64,000 nt of DNA from an uncultured Acidobacteriota bacterium (GTDB taxonomy: Bacteria; Acidobacteriota; Blastocatellia; RBC074): assembly GCA_963796275.1 (NCBI GenBank), contig CAWCKY010000002.1, positions 704,001 to 768,000 on the forward strand. Direction: 5' to 3'. The position numbers were made by a program, and so were the translations under genes. Under the pieces are notes generated by a model that saw only the letters and a program-made list of their open reading frames with translations, had not been told where the DNA came from and did not search any database. This document shows positions 17,361 to 31,124 of the stretch, piece by piece; within the stretch, counting starts at the first letter, position 1, and each line of letters starts with the position of its first letter.

Positions 17361-19334
17361 TTATCTCGGGTTGCGTGGATTTGACGGGAACTTCCTCGGC
17401 AACCTCGAAGCGCGATGGTAGATGGCGGACAAAGTGAACAGGGCGAGCAGATTCGTGAGCGCTTCGGACTTTGTGATAAGGTGGTTCGTCATAACGAGTG
17501 CGGCCCCTTTCTCCGCAAAGAACTGCTTGCGCTCCTTGAGTGCATCCCACAAACGCGATTGCTCCTGCGTCGAGAGGCTATGGATCTGATGACCCGGCTC
17601 GTTATCACCATAGAATGCCCAGGAAAGAGATCTCAGATCGCGGAGGGACGCGGTCCGGATCTGCTGCATGAGCCTATAGGCTTCCGGCGAAAGCCTCGCA
17701 TTCATCAGCCTCCCACGCTTGAGCTCCGAGACCGTGTTTAGCAGCGTGAAGTATTTGAGAGGCAGTTCACCTGACTCTTTGGCAGCGTATGCCGCCTGCA
17801 TTACTCCTCCGACGACCTTCGTATCTTCTGCTTTTTGGACGGCCGTGTAGAAACGGCGATAAGTGCGATTGTGACGCATCGCCATCAGATGAACGTCCTG
17901 ATAACAGTCGTCGAGCATCGCTTTGAGTACCTGGCGGGTAAGGATTTGAAGCTCGATGTTGGCCTTAGAGGTGAACCTTGGCCGGCGTTCGATCGCCTCC
18001 AGATCAACGCGGCCGGTCGTCCGATTGGACGGGAAGTAGTCTTTAGGCAGGCTGGATTCGACGCTGACCGGGAAGATGGTCTTGAGCTCGGCATCGATCT
18101 CTTCCCACATTTCATTGAGGTCCAAGCCGCCGGCATAAGCGCGGCGCAGGTAACCGGCGAGGTGGCGCGCCTCTTCGGGGAGGTCGTCGGCTGCGAACTC
18201 GGGATCCAGGCTGCCGCAGGCGATGGTGCGGTCGTAACTCGACATTGTAATGTCTGACCCACTTTCATCATACTGAGCCGTTGCTTCGAAGCGGTTAAAG
18301 GCAGCACACAACTCTTTGATTGTCGCGCCGTTCGATTTGAGCTCGTTCAACGATTCAACAAATTCAGCGGTTATCGTGATGGGCGCCGCCGAAGAAGCAT
18401 CATAAGCAAAGCCCGCAACCTTACGGCAGCCGCGGAGTCTCCTCTTAACCGACGCCAATTCCTCGTCAAAAAGTGAGCGCCTCATTTTTGGATCAGGGCC
18501 GTGATTCGAAATGAGGACGGACCCCGAGTTTGAATGATCGCCGTCAACCGGCTCCTCGCCGGCCGCTTTCACCTTGACTTCGGAATTGAGTCTGGCGAGT
18601 CGCGTCGCAAGCAGCATCATTTCCTTGAGCACTACGCCTTCGCCGCGATACTCCATTTCGTTGTAGTAAAAAGCGGCAGACCTTTGAATATCGCGACCAC
18701 TGCAATCTCTCCCACAAATCGTTTCCAAACACAGAATAAATGCGATAGCGTCATCGTCGTTACCAAGTCTCTTCCTCGCATAGGACAGTGTCGCGAACTC
18801 CACGTCTTCGCTCTGAAGGCCGACCTCCATTATGTGGTCTTCGATTTCGGTCTCCGTCTCTTCGACTACTGGGTTGAGACTGGCGAGTTGCATCGATAGT
18901 AACGCCATCTCCTTGAGCACTTCCCTGATGCCGCGGCGCGCGATTTCCCTGTACCAATAAGAGGCAACCATTTTCCGACCGAAAGAGTCACAGTCTTCCC
19001 CGCAGATCGTGTCCAAACACACGATGAACTCGACGGCATCTTCAACGGCGCCCAATCTCTTGATCCCATAGGCCAGTGTCCCCAGGCGGGCTTCTTCATC
19101 CTGCTGGCTGACTGGTGTTGAATCGCCATCAATCTTGTAAAGGACCTTGCCTATGACCGAGAAAAATTCAAAATCGAGGCGATTTAAGCCGAGGCCTCCG
19201 TCTCGATCCTTCGGCTTATCAGACAGGAGGCGGCCAGAGATGTGGTGAATCAGGTCGTGCGTGGGCGAGCCGGTGCTGGAATACGTGAATAGCGCGCGGT
19301 TTGAACGGGCGGCGTTCTCAAATCCAGTTAACAT
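17361..19334 (-). CDS. hypothetical protein with a duplicated Cys-containing domain
   Basis: 657-aa ORF, RBS AAAAGGAG; repeats ...CLDTICGEDC...VLKEMALL and ...CLETICGRDC...VLKEMMLL. Confidence 0.8.
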   Translation of the reverse strand: MLTGFENAARSNRALFTYSSTGSPTHDLIHHISGRLLSDKPKDRDGGLGLNRLDFEFFSVIGKVLYKIDGDSTPVSQQDEEARLGTLAYGIKRLGAVEDAVEFIVCLDTICGEDCDSFGRKMVASYWYREIARRGIREVLKEMALLSMQLASLNPVVEETETEIEDHIMEVGLQSEDVEFATLSYARKRLGNDDDAIAFILCLETICGRDCSGRDIQRSAAFYYNEMEYRGEGVVLKEMMLLATRLARLNSEVKVKAAGEEPVDGDHSNSGSVLISNHGPDPKMRRSLFDEELASVKRRLRGCRKVAGFAYDASSAAPITITAEFVESLNELKSNGATIKELCAAFNRFEATAQYDESGSDITMSSYDRTIACGSLDPEFAADDLPEEARHLAGYLRRAYAGGLDLNEMWEEIDAELKTIFPVSVESSLPKDYFPSNRTTGRVDLEAIERRPRFTSKANIELQILTRQVLKAMLDDCYQDVHLMAMRHNRTYRRFYTAVQKAEDTKVVGGVMQAAYAAKESGELPLKYFTLLNTVSELKRGRLMNARLSPEAYRLMQQIRTASLRDLRSLSWAFYGDNEPGHQIHSLSTQEQSRLWDALKERKQFFAEKGAALVMTNHLITKSEALTNLLALFTLSAIYHRASRLPRKFPSNPRNPR

Positions 19335-19817
19335 GTGTTATTCTCCTTTTGTAGTTTTTGTATTTCGAATATGAGCGCGGCAAGGTGGCCTACCTACGCG
19401 CTCATTTTTCTTTACCGCCAGCTCAAACCTCTGACCGGCAACAAGAACTGACGCAGGAAAGCTGGGAAGATGCGGAAGGGAGTTCGTTGTTCTTTCAGGC
19501 GATTAGGAAAGCCCTGAAATCACGGATTGCGGGAAAGATCGTGGATAAGGCTCTGCAAGCAATTCGAAAAATGGATCGAGGAGAGGATGGCGAGATGATC
19601 CGCCCCGGCGGCAATAGAAACCAGACAACGTGCTTGATTTCATCTTGAACAGCGCTCTCACCGGGCGGCTGTTTTCTTTTCGAAGGATCATGGCGCCGGC
19701 GCAAAGATCGAATAGAATGCCGCTGACCTACTATCTCCTGTGATTTCGGGCCGCGGGCGCGGGCGTAAAATCGATCATTCCCGGAGGCACCCGCACCGGT
19801 CCGGATGTGGACACAGG

Positions 19818-20135
19818 TCAATCCAGTGGGATAGTTCGCGAGACGACGCTTATAAGCTCATCCACGAATTTCAGCCCTTTCTTGATAACTCCCTGAGCGC
19901 CTGCCCTCTTAATTTCTTTTATCGTGATTGAATAAGTGGATGTACAGAAGAAGATGGGAGTATCAGGATCGAACGTGCGGATCAGAAGACAGAGTTCAAG
20001 TCCGGTGCCGTCTGGCAAATGATAGTCGAGTAAATAAAGATCGAAGCTTCCACTCATGGCCTTCGTAAGAGCATCAGCCTTACTGTAAGTCCCAACCACC
20101 TCATAACCCTTCAGAAGGTCAACTCTTCGACACAC
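19818..20135 (-). pseudogene. response-regulator receiver domain, N-terminally truncated
   Basis: FDLYLLDYHLPDGTGLELC..IR..DPDTPIFF...AGAQGVIKK; beta1 acidic motif absent. Confidence 0.75.
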
Positions 20136-20223
20136 AAGATTTTCTTTTTTGACTCAGGCATAAGTTTCCGCCGTGACGAACTCAATCAGGCTGGTTGTGG
20201 AGCCAGGGCAATTTAGCGGTAAA

Positions 20224-20425
20224 AGTTCGCGAGACGACGCCCCTAAGTTCATCCACGAAATCTTGATAAGTGCTTGAGCGTCTGCTGCCTTAATTTCATT
20301 CATCGTGATTGAATAAGTGCACGTACAAAAGAAAATGGGTGTATTAAGGTCAACGTGCGGATCAGAAGACAGAGTTCAAGCCCGGTGCCGTCTGGCAAAT
20401 GATGGTCGAGTAAATAAAGGTCGAA
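20224..20425 (-). pseudogene. degenerate second copy of the receiver-domain gene
   Basis: Direct repeat of about 19833-20045, e.g. AACGTGCGGATCAGAAGACAGAGTTCAAG in both; contains deletions. Confidence 0.8.
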
Positions 20426-20971
20426 TTCTTGCGCGTCTGTTGCAGTTTGAAATCATCTGCTCACACAAGCGTTCGGGAAATTCTTGGCACTCTGTCTTAG
20501 TTGGTGCTTCTCCCATAACAACAGATCGATGCTAGGTCAAAAGCCATAAAAATGACGTAAAGGGTCCATAAAAAATTCATAAATGCCAGCCGCCGCCACA
20601 CAAAAGAACCAGAGACTTCGGGCCGGAAGTATTGATGAAATGAACAACGGGTTCCGCTTCATCTGGACTGCTTTCGTCAAACTTCATCGAGCAATCTCCC
20701 GTTTGGTAGAAAAATCCATGGGAGCAGCGGAATATTCCTCGCCGGTATCGCCAAAATCCTCATCCTCAGCCTAAAGGGTCTTGGTATGTGTGATCCGCAC
20801 CGCTCTTTACTTGCAAAATAGAGTCCTAAGAAAACAGGGGGATCCCCGTAATAGATGGGGAAATCCCGATAACCGTATGCTTCTATAACAAAACAGTGGG
20901 TATTTATTTGATCCGTACTACTGCGGATCATTGGCTGAATCGCTAGTGGATTCAAATGGTTTAAATGAACT

Positions 20972-21256
20972 TCAGACTTTCAACTGCAGGTATATTCGCA
21001 CAGCCCCACTACTCATTGGATAAATTGGAAACGCGCGCACCACGACGTCGCCTGCAGCGTGGCTCGGGTAAAGGATGGGGAATTCTTCGAAGAGGCCGGG
21101 CGTGTCGTCGAGAACGACTATGCCGTCGGATTCGCGGTGCCCGGCGCGGGCGACTTGAACATAGCGAATACCATGAGCGCGCAGCCGAGGCAGGATGTGT
21201 TTCTCCACCTGGATTCTTACATCGATCGGTTCGTCACCGGTTTGAGCTGTGAACAC
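20972..21256 (-). pseudogene. fragment of a PP-loop/PAPS-reductase-like protein of mobile elements
   Basis: TAQTGDE...VEKHILPRLRAHGIRYVQVARAG..ESDGIVVLDDT recalls such proteins; truncated. Confidence 0.45.
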
Positions 21257-21433
21257 AATCAGGTCTTCGGCCAGATCGAAATCAAGTCGCGCACCTGGTT
21301 GACTCCATGCTGCTAGAACGGCAGTTATGTGGAATTAAAAGTCAACAGATGTACCACATTGCCTTCACCTGCATGGTAATTGAATCTCATGCAATCAAAC
21401 TTGGCTAGTATACTACTTAGTGGGATACTTCTT

Positions 21434-21812
21434 GTGGGCGATGAGGCGCAAAAACTATACACATTCATTGAACTGCCAGTATTCACGCGGCAGCTCGAGG
21501 CGTTGGCCTCATTCGAGACGCTCTATGCTATCCAGGCTGATCTATTTGGCCGACCCGGAGCGATAGCCAGTGATCAAAGGCACGGGCGGCGCACGCAAAG
21601 GGCGCGTCGGCGACCCACAGGATTCACGCGGTAAGAGCGGAAGCTTTCGCTACATCTATCTCTATCTGGAGCACCGCGGCAGAATTTTCCTGCTGCTATT
21701 CTTCAGCAAGAATCAACAGGCCAATCTCTCACCGGAGCAGGTCAAACAGGTCGCGGTTGCGGTTGAGAGGGTAAAAGAAGCAAACAAAGGCAACGAGGAG
21801 GAGAGGTCATGA
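21434..21812 (+). pseudogene. RelE/HigB-family toxin, inactivated by a frameshift and an in-frame TAG
   Basis: YTFIELPVFTRQL, then LADPER*PVIKGTGGARKGR...RGKSGSFRYIYLY...FSKNQQANLS. Confidence 0.85.
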
Positions 21813-22147
21813 AGACCGGCAAGAAGAAACAAAAAAAGCAGAAGTACATGAGTGATGAACTATTCGGCGAGTTGACGCTGTCTCTTGACCAAGCTCTGCA
21901 GTACTCACACGGCGGACAGGTCAATGCGCGCACGACCGTGCTTCCGGCTCCGCCGAAGCCGATGTCGCAGAAAGAAATCATCAAGCTCCGCGAGCAGTTC
22001 AATTGCTCGCAAGCAGTTTTCGCGCGGCTGCTCAACGTCAGTGTCAAAACCTTACAGGCCTGGGTGCAAGGTGTGCGAGTACCAAGCGACGCCGCGTTGA
22101 AATTGCTGACATTGCCAAAGCATCACCCTAAGGTCTTGCTTTTCTGA
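21809..22147 (+). CDS. XRE/HigA-like antitoxin
   Basis: [41 protein letters not shown]; ATGA overlap with the toxin gene. Confidence 0.9.
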
Positions 22148-22601
22148 CGAGGTTGCCGGATAGAAGTATTGGGGCGAATGAATCGCCCTGGCCAAGGAGA
22201 TGATGGACACCAAGGGATCATTTTCCAATGAGTGGATGCTCACAGACGACCGTAATAAATTGTAGCCGTCCCCCGCCCACCTGACTTGAGGTGGGCTCAC
22301 TGTAATGGACCTGAGTCTGATCCGTGCTGTGGTGCAAAGCTGCGATTGATACCCATAATCTCGGCCCCCCAAATAACACTCATTCCATCTGGTTTCGTGC
22401 TATACTCCCGTTGTCTCAGTTCTCCTACTCTCCAGCATCAACGGTGATGCCTTGTTCGTCGGTTCGGACTTACGTGGTCGGTTGCTTCGAGAGCAGGTAA
22501 ATGATAATGCTACGAAGCCGCTCTGTAGTCTGAGTGCCGCTGCCGCCAGCCGAGAACCGTTCCCGCCTCGCGCCCGCCTGCTTCACTTTCTTAAAGAAAA
22601 C

Positions 22602-22889
22602 ATGCCAATTAAATTGTATGTCGGAAATCTGTCGTTCAGCACGACAGCACAACAGCTAGAAGATTTGTTCGCACAATCAGGACAGGTTGAGTCCGCAAGA
22701 ATCGCAACTAATCGTGACAGAGGTCGCTCACGCGGGTTTGCCTTTGTTGAGATGACGACCTCGGAGGAGGCACTAGCGGCGATTCAGGCGCTGGACGGAC
22801 AAGATGTCGATGGCCATATGCTCAAAGTCAACCAGGTCAGGCCCAAAGAGGACAGCAGAGGCCATACAGCACACAAACGCAACATCTGA
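22602..22889 (+). CDS. RRM (RNP) RNA-binding protein
   Basis: RNP2 KLYVGNL and RNP1 RGFAFVEM. Confidence 0.94.
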   Translation: MPIKLYVGNLSFSTTAQQLEDLFAQSGQVESARIATNRDRGRSRGFAFVEMTTSEEALAAIQALDGQDVDGHMLKVNQVRPKEDSRGHTAHKRNI

Positions 22890-22927
22890 TGCGAAATCTG
22901 TTTTCCGCAGAATGTGGTTCGCCTTCG

Positions 22928-24163
22928 CTATGGGAGCCTAACTAAATTAGATAGGAGTGACGGCGCGTGTATGAACGACTCTGAGATATAGTCCGTGCAG
23001 TTAAGAATGTCATTGACGAGTTCCGTTACCGCAGATTCATCAATTCGCTCGGCACTGACATCGATGATGAGAGATGCCGGTTGCAGCAACGGATCACTGT
23101 GCCGCGTGATTGCAATCACACTGGCCTGACATTCGAACCATTCCGCGATCGCTCGAGCAATGGTCTTCGTGAAGTAAGCGTAAACTTTTCCGGCATGATA
23201 AACCGGATTCTTACCGAAGGCGGCTTCCATCGAATGCGGGCGGTAGACTGAGATCACGCCGCTGACCGGGTTCCCGCGCCCGACCAAGCCCTCCTCGCCG
23301 CACTCGATACAACTCCCCGTGCCGAGTAGATAAATCTTTTTCGGACCGTACGGATTGCCGGAACTGGTGTTGACATTCAATCGAACCCGATGAGTGTCGC
23401 CGATCAGTTCGTCCGCGCGGCGTTGAAGTTCGAGCGACAACCAGGCCAGACTTTCGTCATAGGCACTCCGCGTTGCGATTTGTCTCGACAGCAGGGGCAC
23501 ATTCATCGTGATCTCGACTTCTGCGCCGCGGCGCATCGCCAGAATCTTGAGGTCTTCACCGAAACAAGCGCCCGCCGGCGATCTGTCCGAACAACGCTCG
23601 ACCTGGCGCTCCAATTCAATGGCCAGATTCTCGAGCGGAGAGAGCGGCCAATATCCGACGGCGATCATTGAGTCGCTTGCCGTGGCCGAGGCGTATTCCG
23701 GCAGGTCGTCCATCGTTCGTGGTTTGAACCAGGCATCGTATTTCGAATAATTGCTGGTCATGCGAGAAAAGCGAAGCCAGGAGTCCGGATCGAAATTCCG
23801 GAGCCGGTCACGCAGCACTCTCCGAACGGCCTCCTCCTGAATGGCCCAGATGTCTATCTCCTGATCTCCGAAGGATGTGCTCATCCGGCCCGACAAGCTG
23901 ACAGTGACGGGCTTTCTGAATTCAGAGACCCCGAAATCGGTCCTAAAATGCCCGCCGATAATCGCAAGCTTGTCGACATTATGATGGAGAACTGCGCGAA
24001 AGTTTTGCAGGCAATAGCTGGCGTATGTACATGAGATTTCTTCGGCCATCGCGTCGGCCAGGGAATCAGGATGCCCTTTCCCCTTTCGCTCAACGACCTC
24101 AAACTCTGAGGCGTTCGGAAAGCTGATGTTCGTCCGCACATTAAGAGATTGATAGTAGTCCAT
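22928..24163 (-). CDS. archaeal-type S-adenosylmethionine synthetase (methionine adenosyltransferase)
   Basis: EVVERKGKGHPDSLAD, HHNVDK, GEDLKI..MR, G.VGRGN...G.I...RP.SMEA..GKNPVYHAGKVY; RBS GAGGAG. Confidence 0.9.
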   Translation of the reverse strand: MDYYQSLNVRTNISFPNASEFEVVERKGKGHPDSLADAMAEEISCTYASYCLQNFRAVLHHNVDKLAIIGGHFRTDFGVSEFRKPVTVSLSGRMSTSFGDQEIDIWAIQEEAVRRVLRDRLRNFDPDSWLRFSRMTSNYSKYDAWFKPRTMDDLPEYASATASDSMIAVGYWPLSPLENLAIELERQVERCSDRSPAGACFGEDLKILAMRRGAEVEITMNVPLLSRQIATRSAYDESLAWLSLELQRRADELIGDTHRVRLNVNTSSGNPYGPKKIYLLGTGSCIECGEEGLVGRGNPVSGVISVYRPHSMEAAFGKNPVYHAGKVYAYFTKTIARAIAEWFECQASVIAITRHSDPLLQPASLIIDVSAERIDESAVTELVNDILNCTDYISESFIHAPSLLSNLVRLP

Positions 24164-24367
24164 GCGATCTCCTCAATCGTTCAAGAACAGGTTGACGCCC
24201 AAACTAAAACAGCCCCTCGCCTGAGCAAGGAGCTGGATTTAGCGTTTCTATGAAAATGGCGCTTGCCGCCAGCCGCGCGGAAAACCCGAGCACTTGTGGT
24301 AGCAATGCAGGACTCTACGGCCGCGCCGCCACGAAGTAAGATTTCCGCCGCCTCAGCGACGTGAGTG

Positions 24368-25138
24368 TCATTCAATTAACAACCGCTTGATTGAGGCATC
24401 CTCGTCCTGGGTATATTCGATACCACGGACGACCACCACCGGACGGCTCTCGTTCGCCTGCCCCATGATCAGAGAAGCGGCGGCCGCCAGTTCGTCGACC
24501 AGCGCAATCGATGAATTCGCTTGGTTCCCGAAGAGGTCATGCTGCCGTCGTTCTTCGAGATGTCTGATGCCCGCGATTCCGATGGCGATCCCGATGGAGC
24601 CCTCCCGGTCCGGTTTTCCGAAACTGTCCGAGATGATAACGCCCACATCGGCCCGGATCATTTCTTTGATCTTCTGACGGATTTGTCTTGCGCTGCGATC
24701 CGGGTCGCGCGGGAGAAGGACCACCACTCCTTCATCATGCAGAGCGATATTCGATCTATCGACGCCTGCCCCGGTGCAGATGAACCCAAGGCGATGTCGG
24801 GTGATCACCATTCGTCCTTTCGTCCCCAGTATTTCATCGCTCTCCCGGAGATAGACTTCACAAAGTCGCGGGTCACGGCCGGTCGACTCGGCCAGTTCGA
24901 CGGCCCGCGGAGAAGGCTCCACATCCGCTAGACGGACAACCGCGCCCTCGGCTTTACTGACTATCTTCTGGGCAACGACAAGAACGTCTCGCTCGGCAAT
25001 GGTGAATCCGTCCTTCAGGGCAGCCTCGACGATCAGTTCGCCAAGATCAGCGCCCCGAGTAATCAACGGCAGGTTCGGAACCCCATACAGCCCCGCGGAC
25101 CAACGTCCGAGGTTATGTGGACTGCCTTCGCTCGTCAT
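24368..25138 (-). CDS. cofE: CofE-like F420-0:gamma-glutamyl ligase
   Basis: DVLVVAQKIVSKAEG, AGVDRSN, LLPRDPDRSA, GVIISDSFG, DELAAAASLIMGQ..E..PVVVVRG; RBS GAGGAGG. Confidence 0.9.
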   Translation of the reverse strand: MTSEGSPHNLGRWSAGLYGVPNLPLITRGADLGELIVEAALKDGFTIAERDVLVVAQKIVSKAEGAVVRLADVEPSPRAVELAESTGRDPRLCEVYLRESDEILGTKGRMVITRHRLGFICTGAGVDRSNIALHDEGVVVLLPRDPDRSARQIRQKIKEMIRADVGVIISDSFGKPDREGSIGIAIGIAGIRHLEERRQHDLFGNQANSSIALVDELAAAASLIMGQANESRPVVVVRGIEYTQDEDASIKRLLIE

Positions 25139-25194
25139 AGATACCTCCTCACGCACTTTCAAACTAAAGATCGGTCGAAATCTGCCCGAAAGAC

Positions 25195-26151
25195 TCATCT
25201 GGCAACCTGATCCGAAATGTGCGCGGCCACATCTTCCAGGGTTCCGGAGATATATTTGATCTTGAGATCGCCAAGCAGGTAGCGGATAAGTTCGCGCCGC
25301 GCAAAATATGCCTCCGGACAGTCTAGAGGAGGCATATAATCACCGAAATCGAACTTCGCGCCAAGGAGCATCGGCGTGGTCGTCGCTCGAATATACCGAG
25401 AGAAATTTTCATTGAGATAGAGCCGGGGAATCAACCCATCATAATCTTCGATGTAGAACCTCTGTTGTGCCTGGTCGATATGAACAAAGAACGCGCCAGC
25501 TACATTTAAGGGCAGCGATGCCTCCTCTATTCCCAAGCGACGAGGAGAAACATTCACTTTCTGCAGCCAGGCGTCCCGCTGCGGCTCAGGGAAATGACAG
25601 AGCAAGTCCTGGCAGTTTCGTTCAATCGATGCGCGACGTAAAAGCACGTTTCTCGAACCGGCGATGACTGACGCCGATCGCTTCTGAGACGAGACACCGC
25701 CGAAGACGCAAAGATCGTTGGCGGCAAGTCGAAAACCGTGCCGGAGACAGAGGCGGATCGCCGTTGTGGTCTTCCCAGCCCCGACGTTTCCTAACAAAAG
25801 CGCCGCTTTATCGTCACGCGCGACGGCGGCGCAATGCGCGGTGACATATCCCTGCAATTGCATTTCTCGCTCAAGCAGGAGATGGGCGAAATGGAGCAAA
25901 CTGGCTCCGTCATCCAGCGATTCTGATGGACATTCAATCTGCAAATGTCTCCGGTCGGCCGAAAGACGGAGAGCGCAGGATCCTGACGTCGCGGTATGCT
26001 CGAGCAGCGGCTCGGCAATCGCTTCCGACCGCGTGATGCTGATCAATGGCGGAGCGACGGATATACCGAGCCGCTCATACCTGGCTGACAAATCTGCCGG
26101 CGAGACCACAGACACGGAAAATCGACCGATGCTTGCGGTGAAAATACCCAT
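25195..26151 (-). CDS. HPr-kinase-like P-loop kinase
   Basis: HCAAV...ALLLGNVGAGKTT...GFRLAAND matches the HprK-family His, Walker A and (D/N)D pattern. Confidence 0.75.
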   Translation of the reverse strand: MGIFTASIGRFSVSVVSPADLSARYERLGISVAPPLISITRSEAIAEPLLEHTATSGSCALRLSADRRHLQIECPSESLDDGASLLHFAHLLLEREMQLQGYVTAHCAAVARDDKAALLLGNVGAGKTTTAIRLCLRHGFRLAANDLCVFGGVSSQKRSASVIAGSRNVLLRRASIERNCQDLLCHFPEPQRDAWLQKVNVSPRRLGIEEASLPLNVAGAFFVHIDQAQQRFYIEDYDGLIPRLYLNENFSRYIRATTTPMLLGAKFDFGDYMPPLDCPEAYFARRELIRYLLGDLKIKYISGTLEDVAAHISDQVAR

Positions 26152-26170
26152 ATTAATTATCCCACTTCTT

Positions 26171-27487
26171 TCAGTCCATGCCGGCGGTGGTGGATTCGGC
26201 ATCCCAAGGCCCTGGGCGCAGTTCGAAAGGTATGGACTCCCACTCGTAGATGCGGCCAAGAGGCCGTCGCCTGAGGAAGGACTCGCGCAGCAGCGAAGCC
26301 TGGAGATAGAGAGATTGTTCGATTTCAGCGGGAGTCGCAGCATTGATCTCTCCCCAATAAGTCATGACTCGGCACAAGTAGATCGCGACTAACTGGTCTC
26401 GGACCTGGAAGAAGTTTCCGGGCGTCAACATTCCGAGTGCGGAGATTAAGGCGTTGCACCATGTCTCGGCGTCGATCGCCGGCAGATTCGGAGCGGAAGG
26501 GTTGCCAATGTAACCTGGCGTACCGGTAACGATTCCCGGAATGATCGCAGCCATACTGTCATGCTGAGTTAAATACCGACGCACTCTTTCAAGAACCTCG
26601 TTGACGGCTTGCTCTTTCGGCGTCTCCGCAACGGCGTCGATGGAAGTATGATCGGCCAGCCGAAAATCCTGACTTCCCGATTGTGATTCCTCGCCGCCGA
26701 CCCGGCCGGCTTGTGAGGTGAGAAGTATTCGCATCAAGGTGTCGAGGACCTGCTGCGACATATGTAATATTTTGGGGAATCCCGGGTTGTGGAGTTTTCG
26801 TGACAGCCGGACTTCGGCGACGTTCAAGCCCCGCGCGAGCGCGTTCGCTGTCAGAAAAATGTCGATCCCATAGAGGAGAGCGCTCTCGGCGGACGGCCAG
26901 TCGAGAGCCATTCTTATGAATTCCCGATTCATGGCGAATTCTCCGGCAATCGGCTGCCGGATGTGCCGGCCGAAGACGGCGTAGAGCAACGGCACGACGA
27001 TGTGGTTGGTGGTATTGCCTTCGTATTTGTTGCGCGTGTAAATCGGAGAGATCAAAGCGGGCCTGGATTCGCCCAGAGCAGGAGATAACAGCTTATCCAC
27101 CCAATCAGGAGAGATCGTTCGCACATCCGCGTCAAAAAGGCACGCGGCTTTTGCGAGCGTCGCCCTCGCGAATCGCAGAACGGCGAAGATATTCCTTCCC
27201 TTCCCCTTCTTGAGGCTGCCCGTATCTATTGCGATCTTTTCGGCCGTTGTCGGAGTCGATAGAAAACAGGCGGAGGTTCCGTCATCGCTGCCACTGTCGG
27301 CATTGACGATCGCTGCGGTCAGATGCGGGAAGAATGTTCGCAAACCGGCGTCTATAGTCTCCACTACCTGCCGGATTGTGCGAGCTTCATTGTATGAGGG
27401 AATGCCCACTACGATGTCTCGAACTCGCCCGGCATTATCGATGGTCGCGACGTCTATGCTCTCGAAGCCTTTAGTCATGCTATCCAT
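26171..27487 (-). CDS. GT-A glycosyltransferase, glucosylglycerate/mannosylglycerate synthase-like
   Basis: DIVVGIPSYNEA.TI, NADSGSDDGT, GKG, FDADVR, P.YTRNKYEG..TN, IRQPIAGEF, YGIDIFLT, KLH. Confidence 0.85.
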   Translation of the reverse strand: MDSMTKGFESIDVATIDNAGRVRDIVVGIPSYNEARTIRQVVETIDAGLRTFFPHLTAAIVNADSGSDDGTSACFLSTPTTAEKIAIDTGSLKKGKGRNIFAVLRFARATLAKAACLFDADVRTISPDWVDKLLSPALGESRPALISPIYTRNKYEGNTTNHIVVPLLYAVFGRHIRQPIAGEFAMNREFIRMALDWPSAESALLYGIDIFLTANALARGLNVAEVRLSRKLHNPGFPKILHMSQQVLDTLMRILLTSQAGRVGGEESQSGSQDFRLADHTSIDAVAETPKEQAVNEVLERVRRYLTQHDSMAAIIPGIVTGTPGYIGNPSAPNLPAIDAETWCNALISALGMLTPGNFFQVRDQLVAIYLCRVMTYWGEINAATPAEIEQSLYLQASLLRESFLRRRPLGRIYEWESIPFELRPGPWDAESTTAGMD

Positions 27488-27696
27488 ACTCAATCTCCTG
27501 AAATTCGAGTTATCTGCAGCCCTGATCGATAAACCGCGCAATGAACGGATCGGTCACAAATCGCTCCCCGCACCAATAGATTGTCCGATCGCTTATTTGT
27601 TGAAAGGCGAGGCGTGATCATCCGGCGGCCACCTGACTTATGTTTCGACCCGGACCCGGCGTTCTCATCTGGCTGTCGAGTTGCAGGCTTGCTGGC

Positions 27697-28167
27697 TTAT
27701 GGAATGATCGGTAAATTGACGAGGATGAATCGCCCCTCCAATTCCACATATCTGCTGATCACTTCATAACCTTGACAGGCCTGGCGCATGGCATCCTGCG
27801 CGTTTTCCCCGGTTCTGATGCGAAACACATTTCCGACTCCGTGGCCGCTTCCGGCGTCACGGACACGAACCGTTACCAGGAACTTGACAGGCATCCCGAG
27901 TATTTCCCGGCGCATCTTCTTGAACTGTCTCGCAGACACGATCTTGACCGGCTGAGACGTGGTCCCTATCGATGGATACAAGGCCAGGGCAGACCTACGG
28001 TTTCCTGTGTCCCCCTTATATTCTTCAGGAATCCCTTTCCACTGTTTTAAAGTCATCGGGATATAGCCGTACTTCTCGACGTATTCCCACTTTTGCGGCT
28101 CCTTGCTCGATCTACATAACTTCCGGCGCGGTTTCCCGCCTCGAACTTTTTCCATGCTCTCCTCCAT
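27697..28167 (-). CDS. hypothetical basic protein
   Basis: 156-aa ORF; no recognised motif. Confidence 0.5.
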   Translation of the reverse strand: MEESMEKVRGGKPRRKLCRSSKEPQKWEYVEKYGYIPMTLKQWKGIPEEYKGDTGNRRSALALYPSIGTTSQPVKIVSARQFKKMRREILGMPVKFLVTVRVRDAGSGHGVGNVFRIRTGENAQDAMRQACQGYEVISRYVELEGRFILVNLPIIP

Positions 28168-28369
28168 CGATCAGTTATGCGCAAAATGATTTCTACAAAT
28201 GAACGATCATGAAGCTGTCCGGAAGCGCCGCCAGTGACCGCCCGGCATGGGTTGGAAGAAGACGTAATCCGCCGGCTGATATCAGGATTCGTGTGAAATG
28301 GTGAGGGACCGAGAATCGTAGCTGTTCCGACCGAGTGGAGAGCGATCGGCGTATCTGGACTCCGAGCAA

Positions 28370-28951
28370 CTAACTTCCGTTGATCCAGCCTTCCGGAATA
28401 TGCGCCAACTGATTTCGAAGAAGCGTCTGTTCCACCAAGCCGACGAGCGGTGGTGGAGATTCCCGCTCGCCCCTCTTCATCAGAGTCCAGACGCCATGTA
28501 ACTCATTACGGGTCCCCCAGACTCTGTCTCGTAAACACTCGAGCAGATCGATCCTGTTATACAAAGCAAGTACGTCTGAGTTGACCAGTAAAAGAGTCTT
28601 GTCCGACCGCGAAAACTCTCGTTCAACCCCAGGCATTGAACGTCCTACCAGGATCATCAAATTTTTCCAGTCGGGACCGCCGTGCTGAGCGTTGTGAGCT
28701 TCAAGCACGACATTCCAGTCAGCGTTAGCTATGTTCGCCTGCTCGCGCATGATGCGGATGAATACCTCACTGAGATCTCGGCGCTCCAGGTCAAAGCGGT
28801 TGAGCAGTTTCGATTCCGCCGCTTCCAGATGCGTCTCCGGGGCAGTCAGGATCAAGAATGCGCCTTCGCGCGTAGCTCGCCGCAATCGATCGTCTAAAAT
28901 TCGGGCATCCACTTCTTCTGGTGTAAGCATTGCTATCTCCTTTCGACGCAT
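28370..28951 (-). CDS. stand-alone copy or fragment of the C-terminal domain of BREX-2 kinase PglW
   Basis: TPEEVDAR....RLRRA.REGAFL.LT, DWNVVLEA......DWKNL..LV, LA.Y...DLLE.LRD, HGVW.L, Q.A.IPEGW; no kinase domain. Confidence 0.6.
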   Translation of the reverse strand: MRRKEIAMLTPEEVDARILDDRLRRATREGAFLILTAPETHLEAAESKLLNRFDLERRDLSEVFIRIMREQANIANADWNVVLEAHNAQHGGPDWKNLMILVGRSMPGVEREFSRSDKTLLLVNSDVLALYNRIDLLECLRDRVWGTRNELHGVWTLMKRGERESPPPLVGLVEQTLLRNQLAHIPEGWINGS

Positions 28952-29139
28952 TTCCGCCCGCCTTGTTTTAGTCCGGCGCCGGATTCAAGCTGATTTATCG
29001 GTTCAAATCCTTTTTCGAGAACCAGGATTAGTAGGCAATGCTCAAAATCGGCAGTTCTGGTCAAGAAATGACTCCACAAATGGCTATTTTTCTGGAGCTG
29101 TAGTCTAAGCTGGCTTCCCCATCCACCAAACCATTGTTT

Positions 29140-29490
29140 TCGTCGGTTCGGCCTCAGCAGCACCTCGTCGATGCGGTATCGATCCAGATCAAGGACTTCA
29201 AGGTAGAACCCACTCTACTCAAAGTGTTCTCCTGGTACCGGAATTCTACTTATTCGCATCAGGATCAAACCGGCAAACGTGTGGTAATTGTCTCGCTCTA
29301 CTCCGGACAATTTCAGATGTCCAGCAGTTGTTTGAACTCATCAATCGGTAATACGTAATACTCCATCGATCCGCCACAGTCTGTCCTCACGCTGCACAGC
29401 AGGAGGTTCTTCTGACAAATCGGAAGACCGGATGTCACCGACAATCGGTTCTATGATGTTGTGATGTGTGAGCATCCCTTGGGTGCCGTA
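29140..29490 (-). pseudogene. hemolysin/CorC (TlyC-like) C-terminal remnant
   Basis: IIEPIVGDI...AVQREDRLWRIDG...YHTFAGLILMRISRIP..GEHFE*SGFYLEVLDLDRYRIDEVL, with a stop and frameshifts. Confidence 0.7.
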
Positions 29491-29536
29491 GATACTCTTC
29501 CTCCCTACTCGCATTGAACGCGGCGGGATCGAGCCT

Positions 29537-30293
<757 letters not shown>

Positions 30294-30360
30294 AACATCC
30301 ATAACTGCTGGCCTTATTCTCCAGAAAAGAAAACCACTACCAAAAATCCTTACGGACTCG

Positions 30361-30412
30361 GTAGGAGTCATCAACTGCACTCAAGCAGTGGTTGCGGGGA
30401 ACCCCATCCCCA
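30361..30412 (-). ncRNA. fluoride riboswitch (crcB motif)
   Basis: Minus strand GGGGATGGGGTTCCCC-GCAACCACTGC...GCAGTTGATGACTCCTAC fits the consensus, about 70 nt upstream of crcB. Confidence 0.92.
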
Positions 30413-30496
30413 CGATTTAAGCATACAAGTTTTTTTTAGGGCAAAAGACGGAGCAGCAGCAAACAAGTAATACTCAAATACGCTTTGCGATTGCGG

Positions 30497-30651
30497 TCAT
30501 AACGAATGACAGGGTTTCAGGGTGTTGGCGAGTAACGCGATAGCCATATTACCGCCGGCCAGCCGTTCGCCCATAATCCCGGAACCGATCACCGTCGACA
30601 GTAGCAGTGCCGCCCCACAGCCTCGGCGACACTTCGTCGAATAAGACTCAT
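30497..30651 (-). pseudogene. truncated MIP/aquaporin, 5' part only
   Basis: RRSVAEAVG/ALLLSTVIGSGIMGERLAGGNMAIALLANTL, nearly identical to the start of 41432..42184. Confidence 0.85.
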
Positions 30652-31124
30652 CGCTCGATCCTGTGCGCCTCAGGCTGAATATCAATCTTCATCAAAACCG
30701 CCGTGGAGCAACGCGGCAGCCGCCATTCCGGCGATTGCGCGAGGCGTTCATCATAGCCCTCACGAACCGCTACTGTGAAGCCGAATTTCTTCTCGAAGAA
30801 ATCTCTCGCGGTAGTCGTCAGCAGTAGCGCTTCGCTAATGCCTTGCCGCGCAGCATCCTGAAGAATCGCCTCTGTCAGTCGAGTTCCGAGCCCAGACCGC
30901 TGAAGCTCTGGCGTGACGGCGGCCGACCGCAGCAGGCCAAGCCTGCCATGCCGCTCCATCCCGACGCAGCCGACCAGACGACCCGTATCGTCCCTGGCGA
31001 CGAGGAAGCCGTCGAGGTGCTCGGCTACTCCGTCAGAAGGCAGATCGACGGTATTAAGCAGCGAAAGAATTTCCTCCAAAGCTGAAGATTCAGCCCTGGA
31101 GATCACGACTTGTGGTGATTCCAT
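30648..31124 (-). CDS. arsN2: ArsN2-type GNAT N-acetyltransferase
   Basis: LVGCVGME..G..GLLRSAAV.P...RSGLG..L, LLTTTA.DFF, C.TAVLM; ars context. Confidence 0.82.
   Translation of the reverse strand: MESPQVVISRAESSALEEILSLLNTVDLPSDGVAEHLDGFLVARDDTGRLVGCVGMERHGRLGLLRSAAVTPELQRSGLGTRLTEAILQDAARQGISEALLLTTTARDFFEKKFGFTVAVREGYDERLAQSPEWRLPRCSTAVLMKIDIQPEAHRIER

Follow-up and report, generated by a model that had tools for sequence, protein, structure and literature searches.

Four adjacent genes on the minus strand of a 64,000-nucleotide stretch of DNA, hereafter called the window, encode a glycosyltransferase (GT), a kinase, a CofE-like ligase and a paralog of the archaeal-type methionine adenosyltransferase (MAT), i.e., of the archaeal form of S-adenosylmethionine (SAM) synthetase. 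The window (contig CAWCKY010000002.1 of assembly GCA_963796275.1, positions 704,001 to 768,000) derives from an uncultured Acidobacteriota bacterium of the class Blastocatellia. With a probability of roughly one half, these genes are a horizontally acquired and trimmed copy of a conserved gene cassette that is typical of the Candidate Phyla Radiation (CPR, Patescibacteria) and encodes a small-molecule pathway. The narrower claim, i.e., that the genes belong to this cassette and were acquired horizontally by the acidobacterium, is very probable, and, as far as sequence comparison goes, the window appears to hold the first copy outside the CPR among everything searched, in a reduced four-gene form. 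Its protein set displays the features that mark the cassette: the motif of the kinase, a MAT paralog encoded ~1 kb away, a CofE of the cassette subgroup and a GT resembling MGS and GpgS.

The kinase (25195..26151, minus strand, 318 amino acids (aa)) was taken as the most specific marker of the cassette. It has no Pfam match at E ≤ 0.01, and hence none to PF07475 (Hpr_kinase_C), and it scores 26 bits against HprK_rel_A (TIGR04352), for which the cut-off is 200. A word-index search of a database of 5.8 billion proteins revealed 20 relatives; PF07475 was precomputed on two of these 20 listed proteins and PF27840 on some of the relatives. An HMMER scan of 1.84 billion cluster representatives yielded 61 relatives at E ≤ 1e-30 and 175 at E ≤ 1e-10, none of them >50% identical to the window protein, and a search of the ESM Atlas returned unnamed clusters only. 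Among the 19 aligned sequences from which the family profile was built, the Walker A motif G121-x2-G124-x-G126-K127, N145 and the segment E248-N-F-S-x-Y-I-R255 are invariant, and D146 is nearly so. The window protein has all 29 invariant columns of this alignment and scores 376 bits against the profile. It belongs to a rare kinase family that is specific to the cassette.

An AlphaFold2 (AF2) model of the kinase, with a mean confidence score (pLDDT) of 90.8, was compared with known structures. Foldseek ranked ATP-dependent phosphoenolpyruvate carboxykinase (PEPCK) first (E 3e-7, query-normalized template-modeling score (TMq) ~0.5) and HprK/P lower (TMq 0.25). With VIA-align, PEPCK reached Z 11.1 over 260 residues, covering the whole model, and HprK/P Z 10.8-11.0 over ~130 residues of the C-terminal domain, whereas the next unrelated fold reached Z ~4.8. 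HprK structures align to residues 100-318 only, with a root-mean-square deviation (rmsd) of 2.6-3.1 Å. The kinase thus shares the Walker A motif and a fold similarity of Z ~11 with both families, and the Asn-Asp pair after the Walker A motif sits at what we take to be the position of the Asp-Asp pair in HprK. Its N-terminal domain, however, is unlike that of HprK/P and resembles that of PEPCK, whereas the entire protein is far smaller than PEPCK (318 vs. ~530 aa), and the motif E-N-F-S-x-Y-I-R distinguishes it from both. The PEPCK-like overall build of the model and the gene company would favor a small carboxylic acid as the substrate, although the fold alone does not decide this.

The genes around the kinase gene were counted by tblastn and all-against-all clustering at 18 other loci, i.e., six from species genomes, eight metagenome contigs and four from a sample of 201 Patescibacteria genomes (below, L, G and P numbers are the labels given to loci, genomes and proteins in this analysis). 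The six loci from species genomes are all titled CPR/Patescibacteria (Berkel-, Buchanan-, Falkow- and Saccharibacteria and 'Patescibacteria group'), and so is every named locus among the 18. A MAT-like gene lies beside the kinase gene at 16 of the 18 loci, and the two loci without it are contigs of 1139 and 1855 nt. A gene for an HD_4 hydrolase of ~190 aa is present at 11 loci, and genes for a CofE-like protein, an MGS-like GT and an AroE-like dehydrogenase at 10 loci each. The usual CPR cassette consists of these six genes, tightly packed with gaps of a few nt, and their commonest order is CofE-MAT-Kin-HD-GT with AroE at either side (L020, L024, L045). Deviations occur: the GT gene is divergent in L009 and L012, L021 is arranged as GT-MAT-Kin-AroE with CofE 4 kb off, and the order in the window is GT-Kin-CofE-MAT. 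In the sample of 201 genomes, the kinase was found in six and an archaeal-type MAT in 11, and each of the six kinase genes has a MAT gene on its contig at a distance of no more than ~1 kb.

Two loci in Patescibacteria genomes represent a variant. L043 (1089-4071) and L044 (4796-8912) contain a kinase gene, a HAD hydrolase gene and a MAT-like gene, followed in L044 by a gene for a GT4; on the L043 contig, no ORF (open reading frame) of ≥110 aa is found at the GT4 position. Both loci lack the CofE, HD and AroE-like genes. Here, the phosphatase and the GT are swapped for unrelated folds with the same activities. Since the gene order varies and identities among cassette members are merely 28-63%, the linkage appears to be old and maintained. 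Its persistence through rearrangement, divergence to this extent and non-homologous replacement is good evidence for one function, with the kinase and the MAT paralog as the core. The four families thus co-occur elsewhere, so that one condition named as a refutation in the preliminary description, their never being found together in other genomes, does not apply. A full-text search of the literature, with supplementary files outside its scope, revealed no paper on this gene combination, and neither the literature nor the comparison with F420 genes yielded a characterized cluster of which the four genes could be a fragment.

The AroE-like protein retains what we take to be the motifs of shikimate dehydrogenase. 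Chorismate synthase was detected in 0/5 CPR genomes carrying the cassette and in 14/14 control genomes. The AroE-like protein is, therefore, an orphan in the CPR and probably serves the cassette. In L024 (1177-2994) and L045 (2776-4620), its gene is adjoined by a gene for a fusion protein of ~610 aa, in which a xylose-isomerase-like TIM barrel (AP_endonuc_2) is combined with a GFO/IDH/MocA domain, an arrangement that fits cyclitol or sugar-acid processing. A second GT2 is encoded in L020, L024 and L045. L021 (1429-11704), a metagenomic locus with 27% GC, has a gene for an MBL-fold hydrolase instead of HD and, in addition, genes for an adenosine-deaminase-like protein, a small P-loop kinase, an APH-type kinase, a PHP phosphoesterase and a PRK/uridine-kinase-like protein; this company hints at nucleoside chemistry. 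In L044, an AbiEii toxin gene is located ~1.2 kb beyond the GT4 gene.

The MAT paralog of the window (22928..24163, minus strand, 411 aa) matches PF01941 over its full length with 254.5 bits and archaeal MATs in the PDB at ~1e-53, with ~34-38% identity to solved MATs. It stays below all five NCBIfam cut-offs for MATs; the best score was 345.3 bits for NF003362, where 481 is required. Within PF01941, cassette MATs score 223-254 bits vs. 308-550 bits for other archaeal-type MATs of the CPR. Via alignments with PfMAT and MjMAT, the residues of the protein were mapped onto those named in two structural papers (PMC3853416, PMC9298006). Like MjMAT, PfMAT, TkMAT and SsMAT, the paralog has kept the catalytic His31, the pair His60/Asn62, Asp204 and Tyr278. 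According to these papers, the His/Asn pair holds the carboxylate of methionine, the Asp contacts the ribose, and the Tyr stacks on the adenine (PMC3853416, PMC9298006).

Other positions in the substrate pocket have changed. The GDDG motif of archaeal MATs reads GEEG in 10/10 cassette MATs, and the affected Asp is one that contacts the ribose and the amine of methionine. At the position of Ile351 of MjMAT, which is part of the hydrophobic pocket for the S-methyl group, the window protein has His and its relatives have Asn or Cys. The gating loop that contains Asp146 and Leu147 in MjMAT has been rewritten, with W145-F146-x-P148 invariant in 10/10 cassette MATs. The consensus of this loop is T-Q-H-T-K-V-P-x-W-F-T-P-R, and the window protein has S-N-Y-S-K-Y-D-A-W-F-K-P-R, which places Tyr/Asp at the positions of MjMAT D146/L147 in an alignment that is gapless but runs through a flexible region. 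Moreover, in contrast to archaeal MATs, the cassette MAT is always linked to the kinase, and at least three genomes, i.e., G000, G041 and G465, have it as a second MAT. G000 is the genome of the window's host (9.46 Mb in 7 contigs, with the window on a contig of 783 kb). The window MAT is the sole archaeal-type MAT of this genome, and since the host also has a MetK (contig C7, 595.5 bits), it is an extra one. The named relatives of this MetK at 93-94% identity belong to the Blastocatellia/Acidobacteriota.

Judged from these features, the MAT paralog could either be reserved for providing SAM to a methylation step that varies or function as an adenosyltransferase for a non-methionine substrate of the pathway. 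A role in SAM supply is suggested by the scarcity of MetK in the CPR carriers, discussed below, and by sporadic SAM users nearby, such as the methyltransferase-like gene at L043. A pathway-specific adenosyltransferase is suggested by the changes in the pocket, by the constancy with which the MAT and kinase genes are linked and by the status as second MAT.

The GT (26171..27487, minus strand, 438 aa) is predicted to be a retaining GT-A enzyme of the MGS/GpgS type with a C-terminal helical domain. By sequence, this assignment is, like that of the kinase, weaker than those of the MAT-like and CofE-like proteins, which are solid: the protein matches PF00535 with 29.9 bits, PF21969 (MGS_GT) with 25.1 bits, below the cut-off of 27, and the GpgS model NF010496 with 70.6 bits, which does not reach the cut-off of 262. 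Searches of the PDB by sequence gave GpgS at 1.9e-10 and MGS at 1.9e-5. In a Foldseek comparison, the AF2 model (pLDDT 79.6) is closest to the MGS of Rhodothermus, which it matches from end to end, helical C-terminal domain included (E 6.6e-12, TMq 0.62, target-normalized score (TMt) 0.71); mycobacterial GpgS and Rubrobacter MpgS come next. The top ~45 matches listed from the PDB are all MGS, GpgS or MpgS, and an unrelated GT, ArnC, first appears at rank 47. MGS, GpgS and MpgS act on the 2-hydroxyl group of glycerate, 3-phosphoglycerate or lactate. The window GT is 26-33% identical to the other cassette GTs and has 56 invariant columns in common with them. D119-x-D121, G95-K96-G97, H233 and RQPI-G-F are invariant in 9/9 cassette GTs, and the positions of the DxD motif, the Lys and the His are assigned to the binding of nucleotide-sugar and metal in the GpgS paper (PMC2581804). 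The cassette GTs agree with the enzymes of the GpgS/GpgP and MpgS/MpgP systems and with MGS (GT78) in fold, DxD motif, Lys and metal-binding His, and with MGS also in architecture over the whole length, C-terminal helical domain included.

The CofE-like protein (24368..25138, minus strand, 256 aa) belongs to the same family as CofE and the N-terminal domain of FbiB according to Pfam (PF01996, 233 bits) and TIGR01916 (245.1 bits, above the cut-off of 180.65), whereas its score for NF009809 (232.8 bits) is below the cut-off of 274. It matches the CofE structures 2phn and 7uld in the PDB at ~1e-40. The catalytic motifs that it has in common with the canonical CofE of the host, which is encoded on contig C3, are intact, and it is expected from this similarity to catalyze, as CofE does, the GTP-dependent formation of an amide at a carboxylate whose neighboring carbon is O-substituted. 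Nevertheless, it is only 40% identical to the host's CofE vs. 50-63% to nine cassette CofEs. The cassette proteins constitute a separate, tight subgroup with conserved motifs of its own, e.g., ITRHRLGF and DLFGN, and occur outside the context of cofC, cofD or fbiC.

When these activities are combined, a four-step chemistry can be proposed, albeit tentatively. The kinase would phosphorylate a small α-hydroxy carboxylic acid of the glycerate or lactate type, or possibly a cyclitol carboxylate such as shikimate. The GT would then transfer a sugar from an NDP-sugar to this phospho-acid, and a phosphatase would strip off the phosphate, as happens in the GpgS/GpgP system. Elsewhere, this step would fall to the HD_4, HAD or MBL-fold hydrolase and here to an enzyme of the host. 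Finally, the CofE-like ligase, with GTP, would couple the free carboxylate to L-glutamate or a different amino acid. The O-substituted propionate that CofE recognizes in F420-0, where it acts on the phospholactyl carboxylate, is also present in a glycosylated glycerate or lactate. The hydrolase beside the kinase, which is HD_4 at 11/18 loci and HAD or MBL at others, argues for a transient phospho-intermediate, and the phosphorylated end product envisaged in the preliminary description of this DNA is, therefore, unlikely. As in the GpgS/GpgP and MpgS/MpgP systems, a phosphatase accompanies the GT in most cassettes, although none is encoded in the window, and the cassette phosphatases are of other types than GpgP and MpgP. 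Besides, a kinase of its own, a CofE-like ligase and a MAT paralog set the cassette apart from the described solute pathways, none of which has them. A bolder extension assigns the MAT paralog the role of an adenosyl- or nucleosyltransferase acting on a non-methionine thioether or on an N-acylated amino acid. The cassette would then build a sulfonium or nucleoside conjugate (glycosyl-hydroxyacyl-amino-acid-adenosyl), possibly a CPR cofactor or signaling metabolite, whose pathway was captured by the acidobacterium. This extension is doubtful.

The distribution of the genes indicates how the acidobacterium may have obtained them. The MAT-like gene was found in 0/24 genomes of the host's family. 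L006, L007 and L008 (in G032, G040 and G036, genomes of 3.0-3.2 Mb), which belong to another family of the same class, contain a different archaeal-type MAT, with 34% identity to that of the window, and lack the kinase, CofE and GT partners. A full-length match to the kinase was found in 0/400 other genomes of the same phylum, a sample that includes the unpublished G092; the best score there was 39 bits, in the P-loop region only, vs. 376 bits for the host. Among 585 MAT relatives at E ≤ 1e-30, the named ones are all from the CPR, save one labeled just 'bacterium', and the closest relative, P0142, is 51% identical to the window MAT. P0002, one of the nearest relatives of the kinase, shares 48% identity with it. 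Horizontal acquisition is the simplest reading of this patchy distribution. In a quick maximum-likelihood tree of MATs (46 rows), the window MAT falls in a clade of 9 rows (SH-aLRT 95) together with the metagenomic proteins P0142-P0149; one row of this tree, other_L006, with a branch length of 8.25, is probably a wrong ORF and was disregarded. The G+C content of the four genes is 0.55-0.57 vs. a window mean of 0.558; thus, their composition has been ameliorated to that of the surroundings. The window contains no tRNA gene, the flanking ORFs that were scanned include no integrase or transposase, and the only direct repeats bracketing the cassette (D5-D7), of 16-21 nt, were taken as chance matches. 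The mobility that had been attributed to the genes is, therefore, backed by their patchy distribution only, and not by an integrase, a transposase, a tRNA gene or att-like repeats at the locus.

Several observations weigh against the interpretation of the four genes as a trimmed copy of a CPR cassette for a small-molecule pathway. In the tree mentioned above, the six-gene cassettes make up a clade of 21 rows, and the window MAT, grouped with metagenomic proteins, lies in a clade beside this one and not within it. The window has neither a phosphatase nor an AroE-like gene (tblastn with the HD_4 and AroE-like proteins gave a best E of 3.1), so the pathway may be incomplete or altered there. In this respect, the host has two HD_4 genes, both on another contig than the window, and it presumably has its own aromatic (shikimate) pathway, so that the AroE-like gene may be dispensable. 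For the catalytic domain of the kinase, the similarity to HprK/P, a protein kinase, is on a par with that to PEPCK (Z 11.0 vs. 11.1), and its substrate could be a protein. The window encodes no SAM-using enzyme. Moreover, MetK was found in just 1/9 cassette-bearing CPR genomes vs. 75/201 overall (1/5 and 0/6 in two sets of carriers, which make up nine distinct genomes because G042 and G044 are in both), and the cassette MAT could be the SAM synthetase of these bacteria. However, since neither type of MAT was found in ~115 of the 201 CPR genomes, the absence of MetK tells little. Finally, hairpins between the CofE and MAT genes, described below, may uncouple the MAT gene from the other three.

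Some of these points enter into other explanations of the locus. One would divide it into two linked functions: the GT, the kinase and the phosphatase would make a solute of the glucosyl- or mannosyl-glycerate type, and the MAT would be an ordinary SAM synthetase, a CPR housekeeping enzyme that travels along. The nearest structures of the GT are indeed compatible-solute synthases, and this division would also agree with the scarcity of MetK in the CPR carriers and with the retention of the catalytic His, the carboxylate-binding His/Asn pair and the adenine-stacking Tyr. It is nonetheless unlikely, as the MAT gene stays beside the kinase gene despite changes in gene order and in the variant with a swapped GT and phosphatase, as the MAT is a second one in the three genomes listed above, and as the equivalents of Leu147, Ile351 and Asp146 of MjMAT are not conserved (PMC9298006). 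Also, the CofE-like and AroE-like proteins would be left unexplained, and the argument from MetK is weakened by the many CPR genomes without either MAT. A second explanation starts from the kinase, which would phosphorylate a Ser residue on a protein or on a ribosomally synthesized and post-translationally modified peptide (RiPP) that is subsequently glycosylated or glutamylated. HprK-like kinases occur in lasso-peptide clusters, the kinase profile matches HprK/P by sequence at E ~1e-3, with the weak HprK_rel_A match pointing the same way, and the catalytic domain superimposes well on HprK/P (Z 10.8-11.0, rmsd 2.6-3.1 Å). Such tailoring is improbable, however, since the N-terminal domain and the architecture of the kinase are PEPCK-like and not HprK-like and since the GT and CofE families work on small molecules. 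Furthermore, no PqqD/RRE, protease or cyclase was found as a conserved neighbor by clustering of 11 loci and the window and by Pfam scans of flanking ORFs, and neither a precursor gene nor a conserved small ORF turned up in a survey that covered ORFs systematically down to 60-80 aa.

Two further explanations are both highly improbable. In an F420-related locus, the CofE-like protein would glutamylate F420-0, and the other proteins would serve to produce or modify a variant of F420, along the lines of 3PG-F420. The TIGR01916 score (245 vs. 180.65) is in line with such a role, as is the fact that GpgS-type enzymes bind 3-phosphoglycerate, the precursor of 3PG-F420. The host, too, has F420 genes elsewhere, i.e., the second cofE and a CofD homologue at C1:543614-544521. 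The latter is interrupted by a TGA, which leaves two parts (164 and 149 bits), and is either a pseudogene or the product of an indel error in the assembly; such an error would also be relevant to the many genes described as broken in the window. The cassette is, nevertheless, at odds with F420 synthesis: CofD and CofH exceeded the cut-off in 0/5 CPR carrier genomes, no cofC, cofD or fbiC was found in any of the loci, and the window CofE is closer to the CPR copies than to the CofE of the host. The other explanation is a nucleotide-based conflict or defense module in a defense island, for which the PglW remnant and the RelE/HTH pair near the locus (see below) and the AbiEii gene near L044 could be cited. 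The GT4 of L044 also scores 23.9 bits for 'GT4-conflict', with a cut-off of 26, and HD_4 hydrolases act on nucleotide 3'-pyrophosphates. Yet, the four proteins and the HD protein of the cassette match none of 5027 PADLOC models at E ≤ 0.01, and the cassette is common in tiny CPR genomes, where it lies beside housekeeping genes, and no effector-like gene is present.

Taken together, the preliminary description is supported in part. Its proposal that the four genes act in a combined pathway without a described match agrees with the findings, and so does its separation from F420 loci. Its suggestion that the MAT homolog may use a non-canonical substrate fits the changes at the pocket positions. 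The description was too broad where it included the tailoring of peptides or macromolecules, a branch that is weakened by the structural matches of the GT and the PEPCK likeness of the kinase, and the mobility of the genes is unproven.

At the locus itself, the listing of ORFs shows four uninterrupted minus-strand frames in 22928-27541, and the limits given earlier for the four intact, co-oriented genes, 22928-27487, proved exact. The three clear ribosome-binding sites (RBSs) reported before are those of the GT, CofE-like and MAT-like genes. The GT gene starts with an ATG that is preceded by AGGAG 8 nt 5', and a longer version with a TTG start at 27541 is possible. The ATG of the kinase gene is located 20 nt past the GT stop codon and has a weak RBS. 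The CofE-like gene starts with an ATG with GAGGAGG 5'; its frame is open to 25198, where an alternative start would create an ATGA overlap with the stop codon of the kinase gene. The MAT gene is preceded by GAGGAG. Between the CofE and MAT genes is a spacer of 204 nt (24164..24367, minus strand). A terminator scan picked out two hairpins of terminator type in it (24271-24257 and 24235-24210), both with a T run behind them. They lie just 5' of the MAT RBS, and the second ends ~40 nt before the MAT start. These hairpins could be a terminator or an attenuator. The spacer matches no Rfam family at E ≤ 1, and its overall fold is no better than that of shuffled sequences (z -1.17). A riboswitch 5' of the MAT gene was considered and rejected, as an Rfam scan of 19000-31000 at E ≤ 1 yielded only a fluoride riboswitch at 30355-30420. 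The four genes are an intact, co-oriented set, as described before, but in view of the hairpins they may not share a single transcript, and the usual cassette consists of six genes. No RNA run containing the stretch was found, and one DNA run from a soil metagenome contains 0.22 of its words.

The flanks of the locus harbor several damaged genes, in agreement with the earlier remark that the four genes stand among many broken ones. A fragment of a response-regulator receiver is present in two tandem copies (19818-20535), ~380 bp apart and 81-96% identical, the first of which is an ORF of 105 aa without the N-terminal 20 positions of the profile. A RelE-family toxin is seemingly split over the overlapping plus-strand frames 21380-21634 and 21570-21812 and is followed by an HTH_3 antitoxin-like gene (21809-22147, plus strand). 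A gene for an RRM_1 RNA-binding protein (22452-22889, plus strand, 78 bits) is convergent with the MAT-like gene and lies 39 nt from its end. Directly upstream of the cassette region is a remnant of a Pgl/BREX-type defense kinase, i.e., a PglW stump (28370-28951, minus strand) consisting of an ORF of 193 aa that matches only positions 1214-1393 of the 1403 positions in the PADLOC model (E 3e-32). Further upstream, an intact crcB gene (29919-30380, minus strand) has the fluoride riboswitch (30355-30420, minus strand, 52.5 bits, E 2e-12) in front of it and is followed by a DUF190 gene (29695-30006, minus strand), which covers only positions 2-45 of the 97 profile positions and looks truncated or frameshifted.

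The CPR/Patescibacteria are mostly uncultured, and their conserved gene sets, this cassette among them, are hard to study. The cassette joins a divergent paralog of SAM synthetase to a kinase family that is seen nowhere else. If this paralog indeed acts on a substrate other than methionine, the archaeal MAT family would, to our knowledge, have its first case of natural functional divergence. The acidobacterial locus has the same four core families as the CPR cassettes, in another gene order and without the HD and AroE-like genes, and its host differs from the CPR carriers in being a large-genome acidobacterium with a MetK and a CofE of its own. It lies in the chromosome of a free-living soil bacterium and offers a natural, reduced version of the cassette, with intact genes, RBSs and a host-like G+C content, in a background of normal metabolism that includes MetK. 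For expressing the genes heterologously and for discovering the metabolite, it would be a far better start than any CPR genome.

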